A stretch of 64,000 nucleotides of DNA from an uncultured Planctomycetia bacterium (GTDB lineage Bacteria; Omnitrophota; Gorgyraeia; Gorgyraeales; Gorgyraeaceae): NCBI GenBank assembly GCA_964415355.1, contig CAYPYS010000001.1, positions 283,819-347,818 on the forward strand, given 5' to 3'. Of this stretch, positions 24,001 through 45,000 are shown piece by piece (position 1 is the stretch's first letter; the number at the start of each line of letters is the position of its first letter). Position numbers and translations under genes: made by a program. The notes below the pieces were generated by a model that worked only from the letters and a program-made list of their open reading frames with translations, had not been told where the DNA came from and ran no database searches.

Positions 24001-27000
24001 TGGAAAAGAATCATCGGATTCATTCTTAAGCTCTATCCAATCTTCTGTATTTGTGGTTAAGAGGAGGTTTGCGATGGTGTGGGCAAGCTCTTGGTCCTGT
24101 GTTTCTCTTAATACTATTTGGTAGATTTCTTGTGCTATAGGAATTACAATGCGGTACCATGCGTTGATAATCTGCTCAAAGACTTCGTATGGATCGTTAT
24201 CTGGAGCCCTTGCGTGAATGGATTCGCCAAAGGCTTCAAGAGCAAGATTAATCTTTGCAATATCTTCATCAGTCACAGGCCTAAGCGGGTCAATAGTCAA
24301 GCTATCAGCAAGTTTTGCTAGCTCCTGTACGTCATTGTAAATCCTTTCTTCGTCATTGCGAGCGAAGCGAAGCAATCTCAAGATCGTCTTCTTGGTTTCG
24401 CGGGAACCGTTTTGCGCCTCGCAATGACGAGCCGCTGCTTCTAGCTCTTCAATCCTAGGGAAACGCACGCCAAGCGCTATATTTGGCTTATCTACCCCTG
24501 CTGCGTCCAGGATATTCTCTACCTGCTCCCTGGCTTTCTTTGCAGAATAACGTAGGTCAATGTATAGTTTCTTTTCGCCTGACGCCTTTTCGCCCAGCAC
24601 CCTGAGCGCCTCTCGAATCGCCGCAACACCTGCAGTGACCTTGCCGCGGATAAGATATACTATTTTCACAGCTCCGGCAATAAAAGGCAAGCTATCAGAA
24701 TCGATCATTGTGACATCTATATCATTAGAATCTTGATGATCTTCCACGGGTATATTAGAATCCGTAACAACTAAAGGTAAATAATTATATTCTCCTCTTT
24801 CGCTCTGAGGCGGAAGTACCTGTCCCATATCAATAGGAGTATATGGCAAAGTGATCATCACCTTCGTGCCAGTTTCGCATTGCAAAGAATCAGAATTACA
24901 AACTTTGGGTTTTGAGAATTTCCCGCCTTTATAAAAAATCTCATGAGCCTTTTTGCCTTTGACACGACTCGCTACCCGAATGCTCCCATCATGCATATCT
25001 ACGACATTCCTGACCTTTCCAAGCCCAAGCCCTGCCCCTGCAAATTCTAGATACTCGGGTGTCTCTGGATCAAAACGATGGAACGACGAGCAAATATAAA
25101 ACATAGACCTCAATCTCTTCTTCGGTATGCCCTTGTTGCTATCCTCTATAGTATAAACATAGCCTTCGTCAGTCTGATAAAAATCCTCATAGATCGTACC
25201 TGTCATAGACCTGTCTATAGGATCAAAATGAGCGTTTGTAACAGCATTTTTGAGTAATTCGTAAACCATCAATTCAATAGTATTAGCAAAAACAACTAAT
25301 TCCACTTCAACCTCTTTTGATGGGATTACCCTTTCTATCCCAGAAATATCTATGCCCTCTACCTCTTGAAAATACGATTTAAGCGTAGCCCAGGGATCAT
25401 CTGCCTCTCTAAAATAATATATATCTTTAAAATCGTGAATATATGGATACCTAATACTTGAAAAATATCCAAATAAGACAGAAAACATGATCTCTACCAA
25501 CCTGCAACTGTCAAAATTGATCTCGTCTAACCTATGTAAGCTGCGTTGTATTTTTTTACTGGTGGCTTTTTCCTCTAAGATATCTATAAAATTCATGTCT
25601 ATAACCGTAGGATAATTAGAAAATATTATGTATTTGGACAGATCTTCGAATAATTCTAAAAAGCAATCTATTGCCTTTTCGTATTTTGATTGTGTATATA
25701 AAATTTGACCTTCTTTAAACGCATCGAGCAATTCAATCTTAAGAGGCCTGATAAGAAGCAAGCGCTGGCCAATGACTTCTTCTTCAAAGATTCCACTTTC
25801 CTCCCCAAGGGAACCAGCGATCTTTTTAAGCAGTCTCATGTATTCATTGAGCAGCATATATAATTTGTTTATAACTACTAAAGTCATTTCAATTACTTCT
25901 TTTGTCTTTTTATCTTTAGGATATATCGCACGAAACATGTCAAAATAATCGTTAACGCGGCGTATCCTGCGGGACCTGGGCGCAAGAACCCTGCCGATAC
26001 TAAAGATCTCTTCGTTAAAAATCTCAGGAATGGTTTCTTCATCCAAACCTAATATATATTCTATCAATGTAATACTTCTAAGAGCCAAAGATGTTTTAGT
26101 ATTTATTAACGGGATCTCACCTTCAGCAGTATGCATAACGGGGATTTGCTTCTTTTTTGATCTACGACTTCTTTTGCTATGGCCTGATAAAGCTAGAAGA
26201 GAATCGTTGTCGAATCTTCGATTGGCAGCGATGATTCTTTCTTCTCTTTGCATGGCATCTTCTAAAATATTGCGAAAATCAGGACTCTTTGTTTTAATGC
26301 TTACATCGATAAGAAAACTTATGGCATCTTTGAAAATCTCTGCCGCGCAATCTTTCTTCTCAATAAAAGAGATCAAAAATACGACGCCTTTTTCATTAAG
26401 CTTCATTCTCCTAAAATTACGTTCGACATAATGGCCTAATGTATCTGGCAACTTTTTTCTTAAAAGAAGTTTGAGGTCTTCGTCTAGCAGCAGATGAATA
26501 TTATATGACAAAATATTACGCCTGATCATTTCATCTGAAAGATAAGGATTCATTTGAGATACTTCGCTAATAATAAGGCCTAATTCCTCAGCGCTTAATG
26601 TTAATTCATCAGCCATATCCCATATCTCTATAATACTCTCTGGTAAAACCACTGAAATATTAGACAAGACTTCTCTTCGAAATTCTGCATCCTTATTAAG
26701 CCTCGCGATAGTATCTTCTCTATGAATTTCTTCTGACAAGGCATGGGCTATATTTATATCGTCTTCATCTAAAACTATGTCTCTGAAATGTTCCACGAAA
26801 ATCTCCATTAATAAGTCTAGCTTTTCTCTCCTTTCCTCTGCTGATAATGGAGCTTTTTTCTTTTTCTTGATACCTGTATTTTGTCTTTCTTCCGGTTCTA
26901 TAATTGCCTCTTTTTCTGCTGCCTCTACCCCAACAACTGCCCGCATGCCGCCGCAAGATTCCTGCACTGCTGCAACAATAGCGTCTGATACATCTGACCT

Positions 27001-30000
27001 CGGCCCCTCTTGCATCAGTAACATCCCAACCTCATCATCACCAGGGTTAGCTGCGCCCTCTAACCGCGCTAGAACAGTTTCGAGAGCCCTACGCATTTCT
27101 GTAGCAGTCTGGTATCTATTATCTGGCTTTGACTGAGTGGCTTTTTTTGCCATTTCTCTAAGCGCTGCTAGGTCTTCAGTTTGCCAATCTGCCTCTCCTG
27201 CAGCTAAAAGCTCCTCTAAAATCCTGCCCAGCGCATAGATATCAGACCTTTGCTCAGCGTAGCCTTCGAACTGCTCAGGAGCTGCATATCCTATAGTGCC
27301 TTCTTTACCATATTCTCCCTCGTATGGATGAGGGCACGCTAATCCAAAACCACCAACTAGTACCCGGCCTGTATTGTCTTCTATTTTAATATTCTCGGGC
27401 GTTATATCTCTGTGTATAAGCGCTCCTTCTGTAAAATTATGCATGTATTCCAAGGCCTCGCAGACTGTCATTACGTATCTTACTGCGTCTTGCAAAGTAT
27501 AAGAATCTATCGCTTTTTCCTGCCTGTTAATCAAATCTGCCAGATCTACGCCCTTAGGATATTCTACAAAAAAGAATGGCGCATTGTTTGCTTCCTTTCC
27601 TGAGCTAAGCGTAACAGTGCATGTGCTTTTCCCATGTACCCTTATGATATTGGGATGATGTCCGTCAGGATGCTTTTCATGCAAGGCCCTTAATATATTA
27701 TATTTTCTTTCGAAAAGTTCATCAAAGATTGCCCTTATGTCTTCAGGCGGGATTTCTCCAAGCACCTCTAGAGCTACTATTTCTTGCGTCTCAATATCGC
27801 TGCATAAATAGAGTATCACGCGATTACCTATTTTAAATTCGCGTTGCGCCACGTATCTCTTTCCATCATCAGTAATAATTTGGACCTTTCGTCTTTTTGC
27901 TGTTAAGTCACGAAGCCTTTTCTCTATGTCTATCACTGCTATTTCTGCTTTTGCGCCTTTATTATAAAATACCAATTGGCCTGGCTTATTGACAATGGCA
28001 GTCCATTCCATGCCTTCTTCATGCGCTTTAGCCTGACTTCTGATCACCTTTACTTCTTCTAACAAGAATATATCGTCGTATATATAAGTACCTGTGCAAG
28101 CCAGGTTAAGTTTTCTCGGTGAATCCGCATTCAGCTTGCGCATAGCCTCCCATGCGCTGGGAGTCGCTATCAAATACCTGTCGCCTAGCTGCGCAAAGAT
28201 ATGCATGACATCAAACTCGCCTTTTTCAGTCACTAAGGTAAAGCTTGATAACAAAAAGTCCAGGGAAATATATTCATGAAGGGCTAATTTATCCCTAAGT
28301 TTAGCAGGCATCTTTTTTGGTTCTCTTTCCTCGAGCTGTGCCAACACGCCTTCAAGTGCCCAGAGCATCTCTTCTGCGGTCCTGTATCTATTTTGAGGCT
28401 TAGAAGTAGTGGCTATTGCTATAACATTCACGATCTCATCAAGCGCATTACCAAGGCCTTCAGCTGCACCTTTACCAAAACGCTTGTCTATGACTTTTCC
28501 TGTCAGCGGGTATTCATCAGTAGTAAAAGTAAAAGGTGTCACATCTTGTGCATGTTCATTATCCAAAAGATCCTTTAGGGTTATGCCTAACGCATATGTA
28601 TCGCATCTAGGCCCCTCCCAGCCTTTGTATTGCTCAGGAGGCGCATATCCTTCAGTGCCAATTATTACCTTGTCATCAAAAGGATAGGTGCGCACTGTGC
28701 CAAAATCAGTGAGTACTGCACTTCTTGTGCCTTTCTTTATTATAATATTTACAGGCTTTACATCGCGGTATATAAGGTCGCGCCTGTGTAAATATGCTAT
28801 TACTCCTGTGATCTCTCCTATCCATCTCACAGCATCCAGCACAGTATAACAATGCTCGCCTTCTGTCTGTCTATTCTTAAGATCTTCCAACTCATCGCCT
28901 TCGATATATTCCATTACCAAAAATAATAGATCGCCACCGATACGCTTACCATCAACAAAAACATCGCCTCTGCCTTTTTCATAGACCTTGACAATATTAG
29001 GATGGTTACAGGTTTCTAACATTGAATATTCTGCTTTAAAAAATTCCTCTATGGACGGTTCTGTCAATAAGCACACCTTTAAAGCTACTTTCTTCTTTCT
29101 TTTCGGATCCCAGCATAAATATACCCTTGAATCATTGCCACTGCCTAGCTCTTTTATGACCTTATACTCCGGACCGTCGCGGATTGCATTGGCATGAGCT
29201 ATGATCCTTCCTATAGGCCTGGCTATTGGCGTTAACATAAAACCCTTGGCGCCTCCAAGTCTCGCAACGCTAAAGCCGTAGTCCATCCACGCTTCTACAG
29301 TGTTAGGTATAGGTTTTTTCCATACCTCTGCAATATTAGGCATGGAAAAAGGCAGCACGTCTACAAATAACTTGCCTTCATCGCCTAATATTTGCCTGAG
29401 CTCTCCTAAGTGACGCTTTGTTTTTGCTTCATCCTCGTATAAGATCTTCATGGATTCAGTGCTGAAGATCAGATCTACTGAATCTGGATCTAAATAATAT
29501 AAAGATAGGCTTGCTGCGCGATCAAAGATAATAGTAATCCCTTCAGGAAGCTCTAACCATTTTCTAAATGCTGTTTCAGAAAGCCCTATAAGTTTTATCT
29601 CTTTTCCTATGCCATTTTCTATGCCGAGCTTTTGCAGTTCTCTATGTAATGCTTCTCTAATATTTAAAAGCGCTGTTCCATCTCCGCACCCCCAATCCAT
29701 GACAGTAATCGGACGGCCGAGCTCTTTATATAACTCAATGATCTCTTTAACCAGGTTGCAATTAAGCCTTTTATTGACAACAGCCAAAGAAGCATTGAAA
29801 TCAACGTATTCCGAATTCCTTACCAGTTCCAACTCTTTGTCCTCGCTAGCACGCACGCTATAACTCTGAGAACCTTCTTCATCTGCGCCAGTAATATCCG
29901 AATTTAATTCTTCTATCTGATCTTCTCCTAATCGGCTCTCTACCTCAGCTCCTCCTGGAAAGCCTATAGTGGCAACGGCCCCTAGTGTACTCTGCAGTTT

Positions 30001-33000
30001 AATTTTAGGTCTTTTTGTAATGCCGAATCTACGAAAGATCTTAGTTACATAAGCTGCTGAACCAGTTGCCGTTAATTGCGCATAATCAAAGCTGTCAGCT
30101 TTCCAAACCGTATCTGCATAATGCAGTGCATAAGCCATCAGAATAGTGCCAATTCCCTGATTCCTAGACCCAGAAGCAACAGCCAAACTCGCAAGAAGAA
30201 CAGTTGTATCTTCCTTAGATATATAGACGAAAGCTATTACATCTCCGTTATCATCCTTATAAACCCAATAAGGTGTAGCAGAAGGGTTTATAATTATTTT
30301 AGGGCAGGTTGAAGCAGCCAGATAAATCAGGAGATTGAGTTCATTAATCACATCAACATCTTCATTGGTCGCTGGCTCAATACGCTCCCACATTGCCTTT
30401 GAGAAAACATGTCTTCTCCCAAAAATCGTCACCTCAATTGTCTCATCCTCTTGTACTCCTCCTCCAAATCCAGCAGCTGGAACTATTTCTATTTGGTTTC
30501 GAAGCTTCTCACAAAGTCCTAAGACTTTGTGATCTGCATGAGCATCACTAAAAGTAATAGCAGCCATCAGACTATTCCATGAAGGAAAATTCCATGCTTT
30601 CACTAAATCCTCTTGAGTCTCACCAAAACGCTTCAGCAAGACAAATGTACCTGCCCATTCAAAAACCATCTCGATCTGAGACGTAGACCTTGTATAGTAT
30701 ATTCTGGCTGTTCTTATACCAATCAGAAAACGTCTAAACCTAGTAGGATCTTTATTTAATTCTTCACGCGTTACTTCTAATAATGGAAGCAATTTTCCTC
30801 CTTTCGCCTGATCAGGAGTAGGCACTTCTTCTGAAATAGCACGATAGAGTGCCCAAAAAGCCTTTTCTCTGGGAGTCTTCTTGTTGCCTACGTGGTTCTC
30901 TAAAGCCTTTAATAGACCCCCGTGCGGACGTTTCTCTGAGGCATAACCCAAAGTATTGGCTAATTTCTTTCTATCGCTAAATCCTCTTACAAAAGCTAGG
31001 GCCCATTTTTCAAAACCAGGCCAATCAATAACTTCTTGGCTTATGAAGTATATCCCCAGCCATGTCTCAAAAAGTTCAGGTTTTTCCATTACACCTTTCA
31101 ATGTCACATCTGCTTCACCAGAAAATTCTTGTGCACGCTCATAAGTCTGTACTTTTATTAAAGCTTCGTGAAGCGTCTCTCTGGCTGAGATGATTTTTTG
31201 ATCATGAGTTCCCTTAGCTTCAAAACGACTAATAAGCGACCTGAGGCTACGAAATCCCCATATCTTTATTGTCAGATATTCTAGCTTTATATTTGTCCCC
31301 TTTATTTTTTCTATTTCTAACGTAGCCCACTTTAATACCTCTATTGGCTCTAGGCGTAGTCGTCTCGGCCAGAGCTCATAAAGTTCTTTGGCTCTTTTTA
31401 GTTCTCCTCTTACTGATATATACCATTCAGTCCATTCAAAAAATGACCTCTTGCCTCGTTTAAGATCTACAACTGTTGGCGCTTTACCTTCAGCTATTAT
31501 CTTAAACAGAATCTTTAATACCTCATATGCGTGCTCATCGTCATTATTTTTTGCATACTCATTGCAGGATTCAGTCAGACGACGGCTAATGATATTCATA
31601 GGAGGGGTTTCACCTTGTTCAAAAATACCCAGCTTGACTACAATACGCGCCGTACCAAGATCTTGCTCTGCCATCTCTATAACCTGAGCGACTACTGCAT
31701 TAAGACTTTCTTTGGGTAAATAATATAATTTCTTTTCTTGAGGGTAGTCAGGCGCCGCATCAGCTGAATCTTTGGGCATCTCTATAGGTGGCTCAGGTGT
31801 TTCGCTAGGCGTATGAGGAGGCTCACCGTTTTCACAAACCTTGTTAACTATTCTGTGTAACTCATAAAAACGCTTTACAACGTCAGGATGGCTAGGTTTA
31901 ATTTGCAATCTATTAATCAATCCAGCAGTTGTCCTGAAACTCCTATGCCCCCATCTGTCTAGTCTTATCTCAGGCCTTTGCGCTTCTTCTATAAAATAAT
32001 CCAGCACCTCTAAAGGCCTGTCACGAAGACAGACAAGCCAGATATTATAAATACGCTGACGATAAGAATCTGGAACATTTTCAAGAATAGATGCCGTATT
32101 GCTAAGCCAATCATTAACCCACGATCTAAACGTAATATCCATTTGCTTTCCCTCTTCAAGCTCGGAACGCGATAAGCCCAGACCTGGCCCTATAATAATT
32201 CTAACTACTGCTCTTAACGCAATATAACACTCCCCAACATCAGGATCTTTAATTTGAAAATGTCTTTGAGATCCCGTTATTTTGTTTATAATGCCTCTTT
32301 TCTTATCTGTACATTCTAATTCTCCAGGCTGAATAATACCTGCTGCTATAGCAATCTCCTCTATCCCCTTGTTCTCCTCAGCCATTGCAACAATCTTTTT
32401 GATAACCTTATCAAAATCATCATCTGTTAATTTATAAGGTTTAGACTTAATGTGACCAGCGGGATCTGGAGCTCCAGCTCGTATAGATCTTCCAAACTCT
32501 ATATTAGCCAGTTTTATATCTTTAATACCTGCCTCGTCAAATGCTTCTTGATCTATCAGCTCAGCCCAGCCTCTAGCAATAATTCCAATAGCGCTTCTGT
32601 ATTCTCTCCTTTTCACCCAAGAGTCTACCGCTAAAAGCCATAAGGTAAAGGCATTAAGAAGCTGCTCCCTAGAAAATTGCTGCATCCCGACTCTCCGATA
32701 AATCTCCAAAGTCTCTTCATACCCACCAGGCCTCTCTTCTAGGCTAAATTCAAAATCTGAATCCCATCTCGTAGTTATTCTGGCTATCTCCATATCCATT
32801 TTTGCAGTATAGTAAAGATCATTTTTCATCACAGGAAATATTATCACATTGCCTGTATCAGTACATCTCAGTAAATATATCTTTTTTCCTTCAGATAATA
32901 CAAAGAGGGCTTCTAGGAAATTTTCTGCTTCCTTGCCTTTACTTATCCCAAAATGATCTATAGCCTCTTGAACTGTAAACCATGCCCGTCCAAAGTGCTC

Positions 33001-36000
33001 CCCTATCTTCTCAAAACTTTTCTGATATATCTCGGGAGAAACTTTCTCCTTGTCAGGCTTTGGTGTCTTCACCATCATCACAAACGCGCCGACGGCAAGA
33101 AGTTCTTCTATTATGTCTATTAAAAACATGATCCCTTGTTCTATAAGAGGAAATATATAACGTTCCAGGAAGACATGGTGGAGAATAAAAGTTAATACTG
33201 TAATTGCTAAAGCTAGCCCAGCTCCTTGAGCTCTGAGCCTGCCTGCTTCTGCAATGTCTCCCTGTTCCTTTTTATCTTTAAACTCATCTCCTACAGACAG
33301 AAATTTACTAGTTACCCCAATTAAAACTGCTGTGACTAACAAGATAAATAACACATCCCAGACAATATCAGGAGAAGGCCCTGCCTGGATAAACTGTGGC
33401 AAACTTAACATTTCAACAATGTTGACATTGTCAAAGAAAAGGTTTACTTGGTTGGCAAAATAAAAAAGTGGCAGAGGTATGATACAGCGCATCCTTGATC
33501 TGTCGAATAAAGATGATACAACAAGCGCCAACAAAAGAAGTACGCTTATTAACAATAAAACTTCTTTGGGTAAATTTAGAAAACGATCCGTCGCTAGCTT
33601 GCTTCCGGTTATAATCCTGTCGACGCCCTCTGGTGTTACCGTAGGAATAATTGGTGACGGTGTTACAACCGGCCCTCCAAAAATCCCTTCACCCAGGCCG
33701 CTTATAATAGAAAGAGGCGCGGAGATACATGACATTAATAATTCATCGACAGCTTGCCTGATTCTGGAATCTTGTTTTTTCCTGCGCCTAACATTAGTAA
33801 TACCTACTTCGAGCGCTTTAGCCACATCTGTCGTACTAATCCTCTTTCGCCCATTATTTCTTAGTTTCGATGCTATAACTTCTACATTCCTATGTCCAAA
33901 ATGTCCGTCTGCATTCCTTCCTTGTCCTTTTTTAAATCCTTCTTTGTCTAAAAATTCTGACAAGCGACCCTCTGATAGTCGTATAGCTCTCATAACATCA
34001 TTTGTGCCAACGCCTAATCTGTTAGCTAAATTCCTGCTGGTCTTTCTATGAATTTTCCAATAGGCTCCTGTTGCTGCTTCGCGCACTTCACTCTCACTAA
34101 GATCAACAGCTGCTTTACGCGAACAACTTACAACCATCATAGGGATAACAATGTTAAAGTGTATACTTAAAGATTGCTTCGCACCTATGGCACTCGCAAT
34201 GACAGAATACAATGCAATAAGGGCGATTATAGCTAACAATAGGAGGATAAGCTTTGCTCTGGAGAAAGCTAAGCTTGGTTTCTTTTCTTCCCCTTTATTT
34301 CCATTTAATAAACCATCAAGCAATTCTCGGATTCTGTGATCTTTTTTCGTCTTTACCCATAAAGTCGAACTATTAACTCCGAGTACAGAAGCTACATCTT
34401 TCTGTGTAATATTTGATTTCCGTGTAGCACCTGAGCTTCTCGTTCCTCTTAAATATTTTATAGCAGCCGCGACATTTCTATGTCCATAATGTTTTTTATT
34501 CCCAACTGCCGAACCTGTTACAAAATTCTTTTCTCCTAAAAATTCTACTAAGCCGGGCTTGGACCTCATAATAGCACTCTGAACATCATCTTTGCCAACG
34601 CCTAATCGATTGGCTAAGTTCCTAATATTCTTTTTTCTAAACAACCAATATATACCTCCTGCTGCCTTACGCACTTCACTCTCACTAAGATCAACAGCGA
34701 AGTTTGTACGGTTAGACCCTGCCACAAAGTCCTTGTCTGTTGTATCTACCTTTAATATAAGTTTTCTGCCATCACCTGAAACTCTTGTTGCGTGGTAAGA
34801 AACCGGCTTTTTACCATCAGGAATAAATACAAATATCTCCTTAGCAGCCGTTTCAAGCCTAACATCTGACGCCAAGATAGCCTGTGCCTTCTGTAAATTT
34901 ATTGCGCCTTCAGATATATCATCCAAAACAAGTCCATTCTCTATCAATAGAGTTATTACATCGATCCTTGCCTCATCCATGATCTCAACAAGCACGCTAA
35001 CAAGGCAATTCTCTAGCAGTAAATTGTTAATATGGTACCCAAATGCCTGGTTTGCCTTCAGGTATTCTTCTCTGTCCTTACCTTTATAGTCGACTTCTCT
35101 TCCACCGAGCTTTTCTATAAGCTCCATGAACTCTACTCTTTCTTCAAAGACATATAGGATGCGTTTATTTTTACCCTGGATTATATGCTCTACGGCTGCT
35201 TTTCCTAAGAGACTGCACATGGCCATGTCAACTTCAGAAGTATCAGCTGACCTATAGAGATAATCTATCTTTCCAGCCTCTCTGACTTTTATACCTGCAG
35301 ACTCGCATAGATGGCTTATGATGGCTGTAGTGATACGTCCTGCATCCTTTAGTTTTGGATGTCCAAAGCCGTCGACTTTTCCTTCAGCCTGCTGAAAAGC
35401 CATTCCTGCAACTTCGTCTTTACTAAAGGCGTTTCTCAATACTTCTTCATTATTGGCAAAGCCCTTGTCTATCTTTACGCCTTCCGAAACGATCACTATT
35501 GCGTAGCCGTAATCCTTATAGTAAGCCAAGAGGTCTTTTCCTAGCATTTCAAGGTCAAGGTCTTCTTTTTCAGGTATAAGGGCAAAGGCTACATTGGCTC
35601 TTGCGCCTATAGCCATGGGTGCAAAACCAGCGTTTCTCCCAAATACCTCTATTACCAGGATATAGCCAGTAGAGGAGGCATCTATTATTGCGTTCTCTAC
35701 GCCTAGCGTGCCTGCTTTGACAAAGCTGTCATAGCCATAGGTAGAAGCCCCATGAGGAAGGGCAATGTCATTATCCATGGTCTTGGGAAGGCCTATGATT
35801 AAAAATTCAGGAAGTATCTCTTGTAACCTGTAGGATGCTCCATTAGTGTCGTCTCCTCCGCAGGTTATAAGGCCGTCTAGCTTTAAGACCTCAGTAATAT
35901 TTTTTCCGATAAGTTCGGGTATACCGCCTTCGATGTTCTTCTCGCTAAATGGATTAAACCTGGATGTGCCAATGATAGTAGCTCCTTTTGTGCGGTGCAG

Positions 36001-39000
36001 TTCTGCTTCTTCCAGCGTAATAGGAGCTGCTTTTCCTAAAAGTTCCTCATCTGCCAGGCCTTTCCAGCCGTTCCTTATTCCGATTATTTCTATGTTGCCT
36101 TCATCATGTGCTCTTTTTACAGCTGAATATATGACCTCATTGTGGCCTGAGGCAGGTCCGCCTCCTGTGAGGATACCGATCCTTTTTGTTGGTGAGACTG
36201 TGCCGGCAAATAGAGCCACCCCTATTCCGTAAGTATACATTTCAACATTGTTAGATTGTGAAGTTAAGAGTTCTAAGGGAATAGATATGAATGCATCATT
36301 GAATGTGGATAAAAGAGCAGTGACAAGAATTGCTATGCAGAGCAGAATAAGGACTGTCCAACGTGGCGAACCTCGCGGAGATTTATTGTTTCTCCAACCC
36401 TTTGATCCAAAAAGACCGAGGAACATAAATGCGTATGCGAGAGATTGCTTCACACCTGCGGTATTCGCAATGACGTCGTGTTTATACATCGCGATCAGGG
36501 ACACGCTATCGAACAAATTAGCAAACGGTACAAGAAACTCAAGAAGCTCTGGATATATATCTATCGCGATCGGTAATGCATAAGAAGTGGCTCCCCACAT
36601 GGTCCACGCAGACTGAACTGACATTGCGATGAGGCCAAAGATCGACGTTTGTCCAGCAAAGCCTTGGCGTAAAATAATGCTGCAAATTAATAATCCATAC
36701 AAGATCGCAAATATAATAATAAAACTAATCGGATTAGCAATTAATCTAAGGGATATCCTATTGAAAATCGTGTCGATAATAGGCTGTTTCTTATCGGCAG
36801 ATCTATTTTCTAAGCTGTCTTTAACTTTTCTTAGTATCTCAATTGAATCGCACATAGACTCTGTAAGAATTATACACCGAGGTGGCGCATCCATATCAAA
36901 GATATATCTCGTCACGGTCTCCAATCTTCTAAGATCTTCTATATCTAGCTCCTTCCCTAAAGCCCTGAACTCTACACCTTTTAAAGCGGTGTCTCCTAAC
37001 ATAGTTCTTATATTAACTAGAGTATCCTCTGCGCACTCTGCCTCTCCTGCAAGAAGAACAACGGGAATATTGCCTCTGTCTTTGCCTAGTTTTAGCAAGG
37101 CTTCACTAAAACGAGAAGGATATTCAATAACGTCTTTATCTGTGAATAGAACTGGAGTTTCTTTCAAAGTAGAAAGATTCACTGAGTAACTTCTAAATAA
37201 CATTAAAAAATCTTTGGTAAGTGCCATAGGATCTTCTATCATCTCTCTGCAAGCTGGGTATAGCATTAATAAATCTTCAGTAAAATCTCCTGGCCTAGCA
37301 GCTATCCACTTATCTAATTTATCCAATGTTACCCACTTCACAGCATGCACTTCTTCGTTTGGATAGATCTTCCCGTCAAATCTAGCAAAGGCAATATGCA
37401 TTGGCACATATTCACTCTTAAAACCAGAACCGTCTTTCTTTAAACGTTGCGAGATAAAACTCATTGGTGTACCAAAAATTCTAAAATCTACATCGCTATC
37501 CCTAACCTTTCTCTCATTTCGTAATTCTTCTATAAATTCCCTGGGTACTGTTACTTCAAGAGATTCTCCGCTTATAGAATGACCTGCAAAAGATATATCC
37601 CAAAGACTAGGATTATCCTTAGTTGAAGCGCGTTGCTGAAGAAGTACCTGTCCTTTTGAATTTGATACAAAACATTTCATATGCTTGTTTAATAGACCCA
37701 ACTCATGGATTATTTTTCTGGGAAGACTACCCATGTATATTATTCTCCCATTACCATCCTTTTCAAAATAATCTAGGATCTCGATTCTTTGTCTTAACTC
37801 TAATAGCATCTGAGTAAAGTCAGATTCTTCTTTATGTCTACTTACTATATCTAAAATTATTTCAAGTTCTCCTACTATCTTTCCATTTTCCTGATAATAA
37901 ACAATTAATGCATCTAATATTTTTATAACTATATTAAAATTAATATCATATAGTTCTCTATTATATAAAACATCGATTAGGCGAGCATAGGCTTCCAAAA
38001 ATCTCTCCTGCTTGCCATGCATAAGACCCGTTAGAAGATTCATTGTAGCAGAAGATGCTGAATCAAAATGCTTGGGTATCCCAGTAAGCATAGAACGAGC
38101 TTCTTTTTTTATTAAAGCTGTGACATTAAGATCTCTTTCTGCAGTGCTCCTATCATGGCGCACCACCCAATCAAACAACTCCAAATTCTCTTCTAAGACT
38201 TCAGATCTATCATTAACTATAGTTATCACATCACTTAAATCAGATATACTTGTCAAGTAGTCTACTATAAAATCAGCTCCTTTTAGTAGTCGCTTAGCAA
38301 TCTTTGTTCTGTTGCTCAATCTCTCTCCAAGGGTTTCTTCGAGAGCACCTACAATAGAAGCCTTATCTAAATCTTGAACTCCTTCTGGTGATACAGGCAT
38401 AATAAAAGCTACTCTTGCATGAGGAAAACTCTTCTTTAAAATTTTAACATGTTCTATAGAAGCCATATGAAATAGCAAGATCTTGCCTTCTCTAGTAAGC
38501 TTATCGAGCTCTTTCTTCTCAGATGCATAGTCGTCTCCGTAGATTTCCCATTGTACATCAAACTCCCCTCGATCTTTTTTCGCCTCAAACTCTGCTCTAG
38601 TTACACATTTTTTATCGTCTCCTGGGCCACGATAAGGTCGCGTTGTCCAGCGCGTAGGACATACCACTTCATCTGGATATTGTCCCTCTAAAAAATTCAT
38701 AAGAGTACTTTTGCCTGCGCCAGAAGAACCTGCCACAGCAATAACAGTCTGCCTTGTCACTTCTTGACCTATATCATTATATTTTTTGTAGATTTGATGT
38801 AATAAGAAAAGACCTATGCCTATTATAGCTAACATAATCTCGTAACTTAACACTTTAATGTTGTTGAAATGTAAAATTAGGGTGAGGACAGCGCCTATCC
38901 ATGCAAAGATAAAACCTACAAAGATCAGAGAGCCCTCTTTGTCGCTTCCTATCTGTATTTTTAGTATCTCTTTTTCTGATAACTCAGGATTCTTCTGATG

Positions 39001-42000
39001 CAGGAGTTCATGTTCAAACACTATATTCTGTGCCCATTTAGGGAGATAACCATAGGCGGGATGATATTGGATAGTATCAGTAGTTTTATCATATGAGGCT
39101 ATTGCAGTACTATAATATGCTATGAATCTCGGAGGGCCTCTTTTCTTTATTGTATCTATTATAAAGGCAAGATATATTGCAAAAAATAACATGAGAAATT
39201 TCACGGCCTTTGCAAACTTAAGGTTAGTAAGGGCTATCCATGCTCCCTGTAAGGCAACCTTAGGAGACATAGTACTCTGTAAATTAGCAGGCAATGTCTC
39301 TGTACGAAGCGCATCTCTCCTTGAAATGCTCAAGGCCAATTTTTCTGCCCTTGATGGCATCTCTTCAAACGTTAAAAGCTCTGATAATATCCAAGCGTCC
39401 CACTCTCCTGGAACAGGCTCTGAAAAACCGAGACGGTTCTTTACATCATCTAATAACCAGCTAAGAAAACGGGTCAATTCTTCCGCGGACATTCCCCTGT
39501 CTTTAAAATCCTTATAAGCCCGTTTAGCGATAGGCAATAATAACTCTAAGGATGTATTTTTATGATGCCGCAGCCATCTCTGGATATCCAAATCGGCTTC
39601 CAAGATGCCATGACTGCGATACCACGTAAACCTCCCACTTGCACGCCAATAGTCCAATCTGCTTCCTACAGGCAGCCCTGTATTAAGCCACTTTTTAGTT
39701 TCGGCGTCATGCTCACCAAGCTCCCAGAGCGACCATTCAATTAGTCTGGCCATTCTTTCTTCGCTCTTGATCTGTGCCTTTTTACGGGCAATCAAAAGAT
39801 CTTCTAAGGAGATCTTTTCTCCTATCAGCTCCTCGATGCTGACATAGGGCTTTTCCATTACAATCACGCCAGCCCCTGGCTGATGGAACCATCGTCTATC
39901 AGACCAGCGATAAGAAGCGTCAAAAAAGAGAAATCCTTCCCGTTGCAAAGAATCCACCCATTGCTCGATTGCCTTGAATTCAAACGGAAACGGCATAGGG
40001 CATTCATTGACAATAATATTGACATACCAATCACTGAAAGCCAAAAAGAGGTTTTTCTGCTCACGATTTAAAGCTAGGAATAAGTCACGCAACTCTGGAA
40101 ATTCAGGGTCGCTACCCACAGTAATAAGCATGGAGTAGCTGTCTTCGAATAGCATTAATAGTCCCCCTTGTTTTAAAATGCGCTTATTTTCCTCTACAAA
40201 GGAACTGAAAAATCTTTCTTCTACATGATGCATAACAGTATGTTGTATTACTACATGGACTTCTCCATCTCTAAAAGGCAAGCTAGTAGGATCAGTCTGA
40301 TGACAAAAACTTACTCTCTCGCCTTGGTATGGTTCATTAACTCCCATGTCACAGCCTATAACCCTAAGCCACGGCCTGCCTCTGACCATCTCCCTTCCAA
40401 GAAGATTCTTGCCCGCCCCTATATCAGCAACAACTACATCCTCGCCTGTATGGTCGTAAAGCGCATCGATATATGGCATGACTAACTCTAAAGTAGGTTC
40501 GAACTTATTCCCGCCCTGGCGATAGAGTCTGTAGGCTTCTTGAAATTTAACATCTGTCTTAAAGCGAATGACTTTATCATAAAGAACCTCTTGCGCTTTT
40601 ACAGGATCATTTGCATGTTCTCCCAAAGTATCTATGATCCTCTCGGCTAGGTCAGAGGGAAGTTTGTATCGCGAATATCTAAGTGTTAGTAGCCCTAATA
40701 TTACTTCTCTTACTTCCAAATCCTCTAAGGCTATAAGAGGATTCCAAGCTAATGGAAATTGATTTTCTTTAATAGCGACTGCACCTAAAGCTTTAGTTAA
40801 TAGATTCTTCCACGGTGGACTGCGCGGAGAATCACTGTTTCGCGAGTCTTGTGATCCGAAAAGGCCTAAGAGCATAAGAACAGGGCCTATAAGAGATTGC
40901 TTAACCTCTGTGGCGGTCGCGATGGAGGCAGTAGAGGCAAATATACCTGATCTCCCCAACATCTGAATAAGGTATATTAACATTAACGAAATAGAAAATG
41001 GATTAACGATCCACATCATAAAACCATCCCGGAACCTTGGATATCTCCAGGTAATCCTGCCTTCTGTAATAGGACGTCCCATAGGAGAAGTCGCTGTTAT
41101 TTCTCCCTCTACAGAGCCTTCTCGTATGTCTAAATGGCATATCCTGATCACTGTTAGGAAATGAATTAACGCGACAATAGAAAATATCCAATAACTGGCT
41201 GTAAGAAATGTAAGATCAAGGACATCAAAGGAAGTGACAAAAATCCACGCAGCAACACCTAATATAACAAATATACCTGTTGTCCATTGCATCCATCTGC
41301 GATATTCTCTTTGAGCTCTAATAGCTGTATTCTGATAACCGCGTTCTGCAACCTCAGGTCCCATATTGGAAAAAGGATCATCTGAGTCAGGTTGTTCTAT
41401 AATTTCTGGCATAGGCCTGAAGAAATCAAGCCACCACGCAGTCCCAATACCAATGCCAATACAATAAGCTATAAAAAAAGCCTTAAGCCCTGCATGTCCT
41501 ATGTTCAATAGTGCATTTTGATTTATAGAGTACAAGACCCATGAAACCCATGCCCCTATGAATAGATACCATAACAGCCTATAGAAATTCAGCATTCGCC
41601 TGTTTATAGAGTCATCATCGGAAACCGTGCCTATAAAGATAAGGAAAGAACTGGAGAGTACAGAAAAGGAAGACATGTCAGAGACTATTCCTGGCGGGGC
41701 ACGGCCGGCAAATATGCTTCGAGCAAAGTCGAGGAAGTGCCGAGATGTCCCGGCGAGGCCAATCTTTGTGCCATCAAATACCAAAGGCAGCCAGTCTACA
41801 TTTTCCTGGAGCGTCATAAAAAACCAGCCAATGCCAAAGGCAGCTACTATGATAACAATCAATCCGATTGCAATAGCCCATAGGCTAAATTCTCTATTTT
41901 TTGCTTTAGATAGATCAACATCTCTTGCAACATGTTCGTTAGCAGCTCTACGCTCTCCTGTCTGAGCCTTCTTTGTCACGCTCCTAGCCCACATAGCTAA

Positions 42001-45000
42001 CAAGAAAAATACCGCAACAATAACTCCTATAATAGCTATAAACGGATTTCCACCAGCCCCGGCAGAATAACCCACGTCTGACATTAAAAATGCCGTTAAA
42101 ACAACGGGAATAATAACATATGCTTTTGCCTTGATCGCCTTTTCTGCCTCTGTTTTAGGCAAAACTAAGAAAGGTATCAACCGAATAATATCCGAGATAC
42201 ACCCTGCAAGAAATAAAATATTTATCTCACCAAGAAAAATCAGAACATGTGATCCACTGTTCAAACCAATACGAACTAATATAAAACCTGCGATACTGTG
42301 TATAGCTGCAGGCATTATTAACGTAAAAATCCAACCCAAAACAGAATCAGGGAAAACTTTAATGTCAGCTTCAAAACCCATAGCAAATCTCCTTACACTT
42401 GCTCCCTCTGCCCCAAACAATCTAGCTACCCATACATGAATCATTTCATGAAGTAACGTCAGACCAAAAATAGCTGGTATCACTAATCGAGCAGCATCTG
42501 TTTCCTTCCACACATTTTTTAAAGAAGCCAAACTTACGGAACCATTTAAGAGATCAGATATAATCCCATAACCAGGGATGCCAAGTAAAACGATATAGAC
42601 GGAAATTACGAAAATGGAAATGATAGCCACTGTTAAAATTAATGGAGCACTTTCTTCTTCTGGATCATTATCTTCTGGATCACTATCACCCAATCTGCTG
42701 TATGCTTTGGTGTTTCTTGCAATAATCATTATGATTAAAAGTGCTGATGCTGCAATTAATATTGCTTTAAAAATCATTTGAGATGTAGCAGGACTGAGAG
42801 TAAGTTCAAGTTGCTTTGACTGCTCCACGGCAGCAGTCAAAGCTGTTGCGTCCTGAGGCTGCGGTATATATGTATCAGCTATAAGTCCTCCGAAAAAACC
42901 TATCAAGAAACAGATAACCGCAGGGCCAAAAGAAGTTCTATCTCCTGGCTCTTTTCCTAATTCTGAAAGGCCTAATCCGAATACCATCCCTACAATTCCC
43001 AAAACAACAGCAGTTACTAAAGGAGTAATTTCAGTGGAAGAACTTGTCTCTGAGTTTACGCAGCCAGATAGGAATAAAAGAACAGATAATATTAATAATA
43101 TAAGCGGGGCTCGTGAATACCAAGAATCTCTATCTTCTGACTTAGCAAAGATAGAACCCATGAATAGAAAACCAAGAGATTGCTTCACACCTGCGGTGCT
43201 CGCAATGACAGGACTCAGTGCGCCATTAAAATTAGCAGCAACAGGCATCATAGAGCTTGAAATTTCTGACGCTATAAAAAAATGATAGATTATTAAACCT
43301 ATAATAACTAAAAACAGAAGCTGGAACATGGCTTTGATAATTTTTTGGCGCATTGTAAGAGGAGGGCCAGTTTCAATACATCCTCCGCATTGTACAACCT
43401 TACTAGGGATCTCAACGGATGGGTTCAATTTTTTGCCTACTATTCCTAAAATAATGTGCACAAGAATAAATAGAATGCCTCCTATCCACGCAGCTGCTCT
43501 TAGAGAAAGATCTTTATATATCAGAAGCCACCCAACTCCTAACATAAGCAAATTAAAGATAGACCATAAAAACTTTCTTACTCTTATATATTCCTTAGAT
43601 ACATTGGTGTCAAAGACAACGTAGCTGCCTCCACTGCATTGTGCACTTTCCCCTGTATTATGCTTACGCTGGCCAATACCTAAGATAATGAACATAGAAA
43701 CATAACTTTCCGTTTCAGGCGCGAATAAGCCAGAACCAAATATTTCACCCCAGGTAGACAATACAATACTAAAATTCTTCGTAGCTAACCATGCTGCAAT
43801 AGCTGCAACACCAAGAAGAACCAATCCTAATTTAGGTCGTTTATTTAAAAAGGATGCGATAGCGAACCACGTAGCCCCAATTATAGCAGCAGAACCACCT
43901 ATGGACCATAAGATAGGCTGTATTAAAAGATCCTGAACGCCTTCTGCGCCATGATAGATCTTCCAACGGTTAAAAGGCATGACTACTTTAAGATCGAATG
44001 TCAGCTTCGCATACAATGCAAACAAAATAGCAAAAACAACAAAAAGTGCAGCGCCTATCACAATCATCCAAAACATGGCTTGATTAGTAAGTTTTGTTCG
44101 AGCGCGATATAAAATCTCTCTTTCACTTGGCGCAGCAAAATCTTGTCGTGCTAATTCTTCTTCCGTTTGTCTCCGCGGAAGTTCTTTTTCAAGAAAATCT
44201 TCAAAAATATTTAAACGCTCATCGTCAGATCCGCCTCTTCCTGTAGTACAAAATAATACTGGCAATAATATATCAGGAGAAGCAGGGAGATGTGAAGTTA
44301 AGAGCTCTATCGCAGGCGATATAGCGGAATTTGGGTTATTATCAGGCAACGCTGATATTAGACCTAAAACTAAAGCGAAAATAACAATAATTGCAATAAT
44401 ACAGAACGCAGTCGAAAATTTCAGTTTTTCTGATGATTCAATATAATCATATTGTGTTTGTGTAGCAGAGACTTTCCCTAACTGTTGCCTGCGTCTTCTT
44501 AGATCCTCTGTAGCTTTTATTATTTTTCTTATGACTAAGGACATAATGATAAGTAAAACAACCTCCCCTGCTAAAAAAGCATATGAAAACGTATTTGCAT
44601 CTTCACCATGATGTCCTGGATGTCCTGCGGCTAGTACTTGAGAAATAGGAATTGCTGAAAGGATTAAAGCAAAAACAGGTATTGCGAGGATCTTAAGAAG
44701 TTTATACCATGGAGGGCTGCGTGGAGACTTGTTATTCCTCCAACCTTTCGATCCAAAAAGAGTTGCGACTATAAGCGCAGAACCAATAAGAGATTGCTTT
44801 GCGAAGTTTATCCCGAGCGCAGTCGAGGAACTCGCAACAACATCCTTGCCTGCCATAGCAATCAGAGACATATTGTCGAATAAATTCGTAAACGATATAG
44901 AAAGCCCAAAAACATGTCTAAAAGGAGTTTTTAACATCCAGATCAGATTTCTCCAATCAAACAAATCCAACACCGACAAACATCCTATAACAAAAACTAA

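Follow-up and report, generated by a model that had tools for sequence, protein, structure and literature searches.

Predicted kinase, NUDIX and pyrophosphate-type phosphofructokinase modules inside one giant reading frame of an Omnitrophota bacterium

Introduction

Giant reading frames of more than 20 kb are common across the classes of Omnitrophota (PMC10066038), and the Archaeovorin type of giant protein is represented by a 39,678-residue protein of Velamenicoccus archaeovorus LiM (West-Roberts et al. 2023, 10.1101/2023.11.21.568195). Where the lower size limit for a giant protein should lie has been set differently, at 30,000 residues or more in that 2023 preprint and at 10,000 residues or more in a 2026 preprint (10.64898/2026.06.07.730766). 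Here we describe a 64,000-nucleotide stretch of DNA (the window throughout this text) from an uncultured Planctomycetia bacterium that GTDB places in the Omnitrophota (GenBank assembly GCA_964415355.1, contig CAYPYS010000001.1, positions 283,819 to 347,818), and in it a reading frame that carries, one after another, a kinase-like module, a NUDIX module and a phosphofructokinase (PFK) module. The frame is at least 21,333 residues long and open at both ends, which places it within the 10,000-residue definition. Our reading, which we consider likely, is that this region comes from the interior of a giant gene of the Omnitrophota type, that its modules are translated in one chain, and that its PFK uses pyrophosphate at the membrane.

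The window protein and the Archaeovorin-type proteins are alike in being a huge single frame with many membrane helices, in carrying methyltransferase, NUDIX, HEAT and HATPase_c domains, and in embedding glycolytic-type domains of ambiguous predicted location. Unlike them, the 21,333 residues of the window protein have no glycosyl transferase, glycosyl hydrolase, peptidase or SecA_DEAD domain recognisable by Pfam, and PFK and guanylate-kinase domains are not named in the main text of the 2023 preprint (10.1101/2023.11.21.568195). There is also a likeness to the class called “multi-enzyme metabolic cluster” in the 2026 preprint, in which, as in the window, many Pfam families tile one polypeptide and none is dominant. 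The PF08241, PF02518, PF00583 and HD domains of the window correspond to the signal-transduction/regulatory co-occurrence module of that preprint, and the neighbours of PFK in related proteins (PF08323, PF00534 and PGM/PMM) fit its sugar-metabolism module; its main text describes neither the PFK clade nor the signal-bearing mid-size relatives reported below, and the window sequence is apparently not among the proteins that it lists (10.64898/2026.06.07.730766). Metagenome-assembled genomes (MAGs) of Omnitrophota, a few of them labelled Planctomycetes, hold the closest relatives both of the PFK module (16 loci) and of the NUDIX module. The window gene is a further example of the described membrane-threaded, multi-enzyme giant proteins of Omnitrophota and not a novel kind of gene fusion. 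What is new is a well-modelled PFK cassette, predicted to be of pyrophosphate type, which forms a separate clade among large and giant proteins of Omnitrophota; to this are added the apparent reshuffling of cassettes between genes, the rejection of the idea that the PFK module keeps a relic of its own start, and signal-peptide-like N-termini in the complete relatives.

The giant reading frame

The giant frame was detected by a six-frame stop count, which gave 0 stops in the 21,333 codons of one minus-strand frame, open at both ends, and 530-1932 stops in each of the other five frames of the 64-kb window. Residue numbers used here count from codon 1 at window 63999-63997 on the minus strand.

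1..63999, minus strand: giant frame, 0 stops, with 14 domain families spread over it

Since a stop-free frame is open at both ends, the open reading frame (ORF) is real and longer than the window, and the 64-kb frame is an internal fragment of a giant gene of more than 64 kb. It is missing from the table-11 ORF list for 30-45 kb, where frames running off the ends are omitted. GC content is ~0.40 throughout the window, GC skew on the plus strand is uniformly negative, and neither Rfam families nor tandem repeats were found in the window. The sole long ORF outside the giant frame is a 465-residue ORF with a TTG start at 48857-50254 (plus strand), antisense to the giant frame; its frame has only 530 stops, in keeping with its being in register with a strongly biased coding strand, and it is probably not a gene.

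A first-pass annotation of this DNA, made from the letters alone, had placed PFK, NUDIX hydrolase and guanylate kinase domains consecutively and in the same frame of one giant ORF at 35150-38760, and had proposed Pfam searches for the three families as a check and in-frame stops together with ribosome-binding sites as the sign that they were separate genes after all. Pfam and the stop count both bear the annotation out: PF00365, PF00293 and PF00625 all score above their gathering thresholds in the translation of window 34549-39360 (residues 8214-9817), as they do in a repeat search, and not one in-frame stop interrupts the 21,333 codons. The co-linearity of the domains thus stands, with the direction to be reversed, for the gene is encoded by the minus strand and its protein runs from the kinase through NUDIX to PFK.

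The PFK module and its relatives

The strongest of the three matches is that to PFK (PF00365; E 3.7e-44, 151.6 bits against a gathering score of 30.9), which covers the whole profile (1-277/277) at residues 9273-9606, window 35182-36183. The module and its motifs are as follows.

35020..36195, minus strand: complete PFK module of ~390 residues (residues 9269-9660; Pfam, AlphaFold2, Foldseek, motif conservation)
36139-36186, minus strand: PFK motif GILTGGGPASGHN
35950-35970, minus strand: PFK motif TSR (GTSRFNP)
35839-35862, minus strand: PFK motif GGDDT
35764-35790, minus strand: PFK motif PKTMDND (LPKTMDNDI)
35623-35676, minus strand: PFK motif FGR (EVFGRNAGF)
35476-35496, minus strand: PFK motif SEG (VSEG)
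35242-35274, minus strand: PFK motif DYLYRSAD
36238..36240, minus strand: in-frame ATG (Met at residue 9254), 18 residues before the PFK homology

The GGG (GILTGGG), TSR, GGDDT, TMDND, FGR and SEG motifs are present in the window PFK and conserved across 18 related modules, and there are counterparts of the GGG loop, Arg72, Asp103, Thr125/Asp127/Asp129, Arg171 and Glu222 in E. coli numbering. AlphaFold2, run on 407 residues with a 64-sequence alignment, returned a confident model (pLDDT 92.3, pTM 0.89) that Foldseek matched to many solved PFKs at probability 1.00, its top matches being the pyrophosphate-dependent enzymes of Trichomonas vaginalis (TM 0.78) and Ca. Prometheoarchaeum (TM 0.75); the T. 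vaginalis enzyme is also the best sequence match among solved PFKs. The window PFK carries Asp104 and Lys124 (E. coli numbering), within GGDDT and LPKTMDND, and this pair is associated with pyrophosphate dependence (PMC3608648). By signature residues and fold match, then, it is predicted to be a full, pyrophosphate-type PFK. With T. vaginalis Pfk1 (PDB 9dqm/9mf6) and the Ca. Prometheoarchaeum syntrophicum enzyme (PDB 9cir) it shares the fold (TM 0.75-0.78 over ~400 residues), the GGDD and PKT.DND motifs, and a Y..R..D motif in place of the H..R motif of the ATP enzymes. It differs from them in that identity is only 24-26%, and in that those PFKs are soluble oligomers of 40-45 kDa, whereas the window PFK sits in a giant membrane protein.

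The best database protein for the module is an 806-residue Auribacterota protein (P0001) at 52% identity, as against 28-36% for ordinary PFKs of ~343 residues. A locus scan that took a single genome for each species brought up ~16 loci with identities of 43-56% and two more at 34-39%, all of them in Omnitrophota MAGs (a few labelled Planctomycetes), and in 11 loci the module-bearing frame stays open over the full length of the fetched sequence (up to 21 kb). Stops upstream of the module in L004 and L010 were considered as marks of gene starts and ruled out, since they fall in scaffold gaps of N. When window residues 5500-13500 were compared with the related loci by tBLASTn, only the ~390-residue PFK module was in common, and the kinase-NUDIX-PFK order is therefore not conserved. 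Among the 18 modules the homology has sharp boundaries, ~9269-9660 in the window protein, beginning K/R-R-I-G-I-L-T-G-G-G and stopping at ..Y-L-x-A-N-Q-A, and the flanks are unrelated between loci: the 1,000 residues upstream hold, depending on the locus, domains such as carbohydrate (glycogen) phosphorylase, GH9 with HEAT, CofD with PMM/HAD, starch synthase GT5 with GT1, or transketolase. Some relatives have tandem PFKs, or a full PFK preceded by a degenerate half (L010 8051-9277 and 9974-11170; L001 10457-11032 and 11153-12316; L014 5716-6252 and 6310-7425; P0003), and the paired copies may substitute for the dimer interface of classical PFKs.

In a neighbour-joining tree of 134 sequences, the modules, the Auribacterota protein and the window sequence form one clade (bootstrap 99/100), which stands apart from stand-alone PFKs, three from Omnitrophota included, and beside pyrophosphate-type proteins of 431-441 residues. 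The stand-alone bacterial and archaeal PFKs (the TIGR02483 mixed-substrate group, ~343 residues, found in Omnitrophota too) belong to the same Pfam family and share the catalytic motifs; they differ from the module in identity (28-36%), in clade, and in lacking a signal peptide or membrane helix, their sequence opening straight away with the IGILTGGG strand. By size the relatives form a series, from the 806-residue gene through fusion proteins of 1.7-2.0 thousand residues to giant frames. The earlier suggestion that genes had been captured by fusion is thus half right. Sharp boundaries and differing flanks support the joining of enzyme modules by fusion or domain accretion, as far as sequence comparison can tell; that the joined units are captured housekeeping genes is contradicted by the separateness of the module clade from the stand-alone PFKs and by the sub-cut-off scores of the kinase and NUDIX modules.

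The four PFK-clade proteins with a complete N-terminus all have a signal-peptide-like start behind a good ribosome-binding site, with a basic n-region, a hydrophobic core and small residues at -3/-1.

P0001 (Auribacterota, 806 residues): signal-like N-terminus, partial PFK, full PFK
L013 8408-13555 (1,716 residues): signal-like N-terminus, class II aldolase, PFK, helix, GAPDH C-domain
L015 7193-13273 (Ca. Zapsychrus exili JAVCCJ010000069.1, 2,027 residues): signal-like N-terminus, UDP-glucose pyrophosphorylase, PFK, PGI (E 1.5e-190)
L014 4858-7443: signal-like N-terminus, partial PFK, PFK

Because PFK is fused to adjacent pathway enzymes in such proteins, the module would be expected to do real sugar-phosphate chemistry, on whichever side of the membrane. 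The L015 protein also holds an RNA-polymerase-alpha-CTD-like helix-hairpin-helix between PFK and PGI, and the gene that follows this fusion encodes a PGM/PMM protein with no obvious signal. At L013 6715-21248 (Omnitrophota MAG JAKPTF010000035.1) lies a row of same-strand genes, each with a signal-peptide-like N-terminus: an unannotated 558-residue frame, the aldolase-PFK-GAPDH fusion, a PGI-like protein (951 residues) and a pyruvate phosphate dikinase (>1,569 residues). Judged by their sequences, the encoded proteins resemble a suite of glycolytic enzymes of pyrophosphate type that would be exported.

The kinase-like and NUDIX modules

The other two modules match their Pfam families more modestly, the kinase-like one to Guanylate_kin PF00625 (E 1.1e-9, 38.7 bits against a gathering score of 25.2) and the other to NUDIX PF00293 (E 1.9e-11, 44.5 bits against 21.1).

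38347..38745, minus strand: guanylate-kinase-fold P-loop kinase module (residues 8419-8551; Pfam, alignment to yeast Gmk 1GKY)
38704-38730, minus strand: kinase P-loop GSSGAGKST
38626-38646, minus strand: kinase motif TTRPYRG
37276..37674, minus strand: NUDIX hydrolase module (residues 8776-8908; Pfam)
37516-37584, minus strand: Nudix box GHSISGESLEVTVPREFIEELRN

Against yeast Gmk 1GKY the kinase module keeps the TTR, the Arg that follows it and the Tyr/Ser of the YGS motif. Among NCBIfam models PhnN fits it best, at 50 bits where the cut-off is 156, and the guanylate kinase model TIGR03263 scores 40 against 160.45; these scores, together with changed residues, rule out a true Gmk or PhnN identity, and we read the module as a guanylate-kinase-fold nucleotide or sugar-phosphate kinase of no closer assignment. 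It also matches the guanylate-kinase-fold domain of FAP42 (PDB 7n6g chain 6M), a 2,540-residue structural protein of the Chlamydomonas ciliary central apparatus, which shows that the fold can occur embedded in a very large protein with no metabolic role. In the Nudix box (G-HSISG-E-SLEVTVP-RE-F-I-EE-L-RN) the catalytic Glu and Arg residues are all kept, and the terminal GU of the consensus GX5EX7REUXEEXGU has become RN. In NCBIfam and the PDB the NUDIX module comes closest to type 1 IPP isomerase, at 45.9 bits against an equivalog cut-off of 127; that identity is ruled out by the score and by Ala at the position of the catalytic Cys67 of the E. coli enzyme (SFAGH against SVCGH).

Relatives of these two modules are harder to find. 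A word-indexed protein search with the kinase-NUDIX segment gave no match at E <= 0.001, and a metagenome scan with the same segment found only ordinary small genes, a 143-residue NUDIX (L081) and a 215-residue guanylate kinase (L082). By exhaustive HMMER search the nearest NUDIX relative is P0121, a partial 881-residue Omnitrophota protein (44% identity, E 3e-36), and kinase-like modules ~30% identical lie inside long proteins, one of 4,634 residues with GT5, GT1 and an M28 peptidase, another a 7,175-residue Omnitrophota protein. Each module type, by these sequence matches, recurs in long Omnitrophota proteins. Kinase and NUDIX together were seen in no relative in the HMMER search; as no relative joins these two, and only PFK is common to the loci, the three-domain arrangement is specific to the window gene. 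AlphaFold2 applied to residues 8401-9070 without an alignment gave no usable model (pLDDT 36.7).

Membrane helices and topology

Hydrophobic helices were located from 19-residue Kyte-Doolittle means and oriented by the Lys and Arg charges of their flanks (the positive-inside rule). The window protein has 56 hydrophobic peaks at a mean of 1.9 or more and 90 at 1.6 or more, and those around the three modules are as follows.

38803..38928, minus strand: helix pair, residues 8358-8376 and 8381-8399 (Kyte-Doolittle 2.69 and 2.01), directly before the kinase
36673..36729, minus strand: helix, residues 9091-9109 (Kyte-Doolittle 2.84), after the NUDIX loop
34195..34251, minus strand: helix, residues 9917-9935 (Kyte-Doolittle 3.07), the next strong helix after PFK

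The first-pass annotation had each enzyme separated from the next by membrane-spanning segments, and this is true between NUDIX and PFK, before the kinase and after PFK. It fails between kinase and NUDIX, where the 225 intervening residues hold no segment at the 1.6 threshold. The more basic flank of the helix pair faces the kinase, and that of helix 9091-9109 faces NUDIX; since the basic flanks of both bounding helices thus face the loop, the kinase-NUDIX loop is inferred to be cytoplasmic. The case of PFK is less clear. Helix 9215-9233, before PFK, has 5 Lys/Arg flanking its N end and 0 flanking its C end, a signal-anchor-like polarity, and the membrane side of the PFK loop, as predicted from such flanks, is a matter of roughly even odds. 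Charge flanks and helix parity were dropped as proof of topology, being inconsistent for the PFK loop and among relatives.

Other domains and repeats in the window protein

Across the 21,333 residues Pfam recognises 14 families. Those beyond the three modules are listed by residue; all lie on the minus strand.

Residue 5130: bPH_2 (Pfam)
Residues 7859, 15370 and 16474: methyltransferases (Pfam)
Residue 11242: GNAT (Pfam)
Residues 11608-11890 and 12045-12314: two tandem Ser/Thr protein kinase domains, ~32-35% identical (Pfam)
Residue 12908: HATPase_c (Pfam)
Residue 15860: HEAT (Pfam)
Residue 19080: HD_4 (Pfam)
Residue 19898: RelA_SpoT (Pfam)
Residue 20828: PRPP-synthetase N domain (Pfam)

Dockerin domains, like the peptidase, SecA_DEAD, glycosyl transferase and glycosyl hydrolase domains mentioned above, were not found by Pfam in these residues, which leave out the N-terminal part of the gene beyond the window. 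The C-terminal part of the window protein (1222-6762, minus strand) combines HD_4 and RelA_SpoT, which are (p)ppGpp hydrolase and synthetase types, with the PRPP-synthetase N domain, and these, with the kinase-like and NUDIX modules, give the protein a nucleotide-metabolism flavour. At 12244-33075 (minus strand) run ~6,900 residues with no strong hydrophobic helix, which hold GNAT, the two Ser/Thr kinases, HATPase_c, two methyltransferases and the HEAT repeats; the stretch follows a helix with a more basic C flank, which suggests that it too would be cytoplasmic.

Two kinds of repeated element lie near the modules.

45817-46011, minus strand: ~70-residue element (internal BLAST and hidden Markov model)
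44650-44877, minus strand: ~70-residue element, second copy (same methods)
40786-40998, minus strand: ~70-residue element, third copy (same methods)
36301-36510, minus strand: ~70-residue element, fourth copy (same methods)
34306-34698 and 33736-34110, minus strand: two copies of a ~130-residue domain (residues 9768-9898 and 9964-10088; internal BLAST, E 7e-25)

The four copies of the ~70-residue element, found by chunked self-BLAST and a hidden Markov model with domain E-values of 2e-25 to 4e-35, consist of KQSL..LFGSKGWRNNKSPRGSPRW plus a hydrophobic helix (consensus AKQSL..LFGS(K/Q)GWRNxxSPRxPP(W)YKLLKILAIP), and the fourth ends in helix 9215-9233 directly upstream of PFK. The element resembles a helical hairpin with a short basic turn, and it may act as an anchor, an insertion signal or a processing site. 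Its model had no match outside the window among all the fetched related loci, and it is therefore lineage-specific. The two ~130-residue copies are 47% identical and stand one either side of helix 9917-9935; they have no Pfam match, and their sequence is helix-turn-helix-like (NLANRLGVGKDDVQSAI, DVASVLGV). A further internal repeat pairs residues 14305-14581 with 14716-14986. Three HExxH motifs (residues 8330, 7184 and 3845; 38998-39012 and the regions of 42450 and 52467, minus strand) compare with 0.45 expected from shuffles, one of them (HELLH) lying between helices just upstream of the kinase module and another (HEMIH) within a hydrophobic segment; as a cleavage protease they were ruled out, three being too few.

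Weighing the explanations

On the reading that we favour, the gene would encode a membrane-threaded protein of tens of thousands of residues, made of many self-contained enzyme and regulatory modules, and the kinase-like, NUDIX and PFK modules would be translated within this single polypeptide with no start sites of their own. The modules would be mobile domain cassettes, added and reshuffled as the giant-gene family evolved, and the PFK cassette would have been acquired once from a pyrophosphate-type PFK lineage and then inherited among large and giant Omnitrophota proteins. The PFK module would be catalytically competent, would use pyrophosphate, and would be held at the membrane by its flanking helices, and the kinase-like and NUDIX modules would sit together in one helix-free cytoplasmic loop and act on nucleotides or nucleotide-linked substrates.

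Several observations weigh against this picture. Arg162 of E. coli PFK binds the 6-phosphate of fructose 6-phosphate across a subunit interface; the equivalent in the window is Tyr9446 (in STGY), unlike 15 of the 18 related modules and the T. vaginalis enzyme, all of which have Arg. Classical PFKs build their active sites across subunit interfaces, whereas internal BLAST found a single PFK copy in the window. The kinase module lacks residues matching Tyr50 and Glu69 of yeast Gmk, which we take to be GMP-binding residues, and both it and the NUDIX module score far under the orthologue cut-offs. No database sequence is more than 56% identical to the PFK module. As regards the membrane, helix 9917-9935 has 5 Lys/Arg on its N flank, the PFK side, in conflict with the polarity of the helix upstream of PFK, and the flanking helices of the relatives give mixed polarity, several relatives having no helix within 700 residues of the module. 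Finally, both ends of the gene fall outside the window, and with them any N-terminal signal and any SecA-like or peptidase domain there.

A polyprotein, in which a protease cuts the giant product into a membrane-anchored kinase, NUDIX and PFK that work independently, is the first rival to this reading. C39 and S8 peptidases have been noted near the N-termini of full-length giant proteins, with cleavage suggested (West-Roberts et al. 2023, 10.1101/2023.11.21.568195); the existence of PFK relatives as separate proteins of 0.8-2 thousand residues indicates that free-standing units are viable; and the ~70-residue element, one of whose four copies immediately precedes PFK, might serve for punctuation or processing. 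Yet that element is absent from the related loci, the module borders show no conserved sequence or motif among the 18 modules, Pfam showed no peptidase family in the 21,333 residues of the window, and proteomic evidence of cleavage is not reported in the accessible parts of the two sources (10.1101/2023.11.21.568195, PMC10066038), and on balance we judge such cleavage unlikely. Nor do we put much weight on the modules being pseudoenzymes, with folds kept only for binding or scaffolding (of sugar phosphates or nucleotides, for example) and catalysis lost. The Tyr at the Arg162 position, the two missing GMP-contact residues, the divergence of the kinase and NUDIX modules (no word-indexed match, ~30-44% identity to the best relatives) and the existence of structural guanylate-kinase folds such as FAP42 (PDB 7n6g) all fit this improbable case, but every PFK catalytic motif is conserved across the clade, the Nudix box retains RE..EE, the P-loop is intact, and relatives fuse PFK with aldolase, GAPDH and PGI (the last at E 1.5e-190).

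Separate conventional genes, with internal promoters and starts yielding individual enzymes from a frame that is open only incidentally, are very improbable. The in-frame ATG 18 codons before the PFK homology is what speaks for them, and the first-pass annotation had taken its Met as the module's own N-terminus, while seeing no obvious ribosome-binding site or promoter before it. The latter observation was sound: no Shine-Dalgarno motif occurs in the 20 nucleotides before this ATG (CACAATCTAACAATGTTGAA), whereas the genuine starts of related genes have AGGAG or AGGAGG 8-9 nucleotides upstream, and, measured against shuffles of the sequence, promoter-like sites (15 observed, where shuffling gives 14.2 +/- 3.6) and terminator-like sites (4 observed, where it gives 3.7 +/- 2.3) are at chance level. 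The Met itself does not hold up as a retained start. The segment that contains Met 9254 cannot be aligned and is conserved in 0 of 18 related modules, and since Met makes up 1.9% of residues, a stretch of 20 would include one by chance in roughly a third of cases; a relic start at this position was ruled out on the missing Shine-Dalgarno motif and the non-conservation, and no signal in the window supports internal starts. A 64-kb frame with zero stops, moreover, cannot be incidental. That the frame is an artefact of misassembly or of non-coding sequence is a negligible prospect, given 0 stops in 21,333 codons against hundreds to thousands in the other frames, 14 Pfam families within the frame, the failure to find tandem repeats or RNA families, and frames of the same kind in independent assemblies from many studies.

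A different matter is the side of the membrane on which the PFK works. It is conceivable, if rather doubtful in our judgement, that PFK and its fused glycolytic enzymes act outside the cytoplasmic membrane as a Sec-exported, pyrophosphate-driven, ATP-independent set that processes the metabolites of prey; such a set would be displayed by ultra-small, probably predatory bacteria and would work on metabolites released from prey or inside it. The signal-like N-termini in four of four complete relatives, the L013 gene row and the signal-anchor polarity before the window PFK point this way. Counting against export are the opposite polarity of the helix after PFK, the inconsistency of the giant-frame relatives, and the fact that pyrophosphate and fructose 6-phosphate are cytoplasmic metabolites. 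According to both preprints, predictions tend to put the metabolic domains of giant proteins outside, a result that each regards as doubtful or unresolved (10.1101/2023.11.21.568195, 10.64898/2026.06.07.730766).

Implications

Bacterial giant genes such as this one rank with the longest genes known. The PFK module can be traced from an 806-residue gene, through multi-enzyme fusions of 2 thousand residues, to giant frames; being definable, modelled and traceable, it offers a practical handle on the activity and the membrane side of the embedded modules. If the module is exported, there would be a pyrophosphate-based sugar-phosphate pathway outside the cell, and the view of predation by these bacteria would change. 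If it is cytoplasmic, the giant proteins would be membrane-tethered scaffolds for metabolism and signalling in very small cells.

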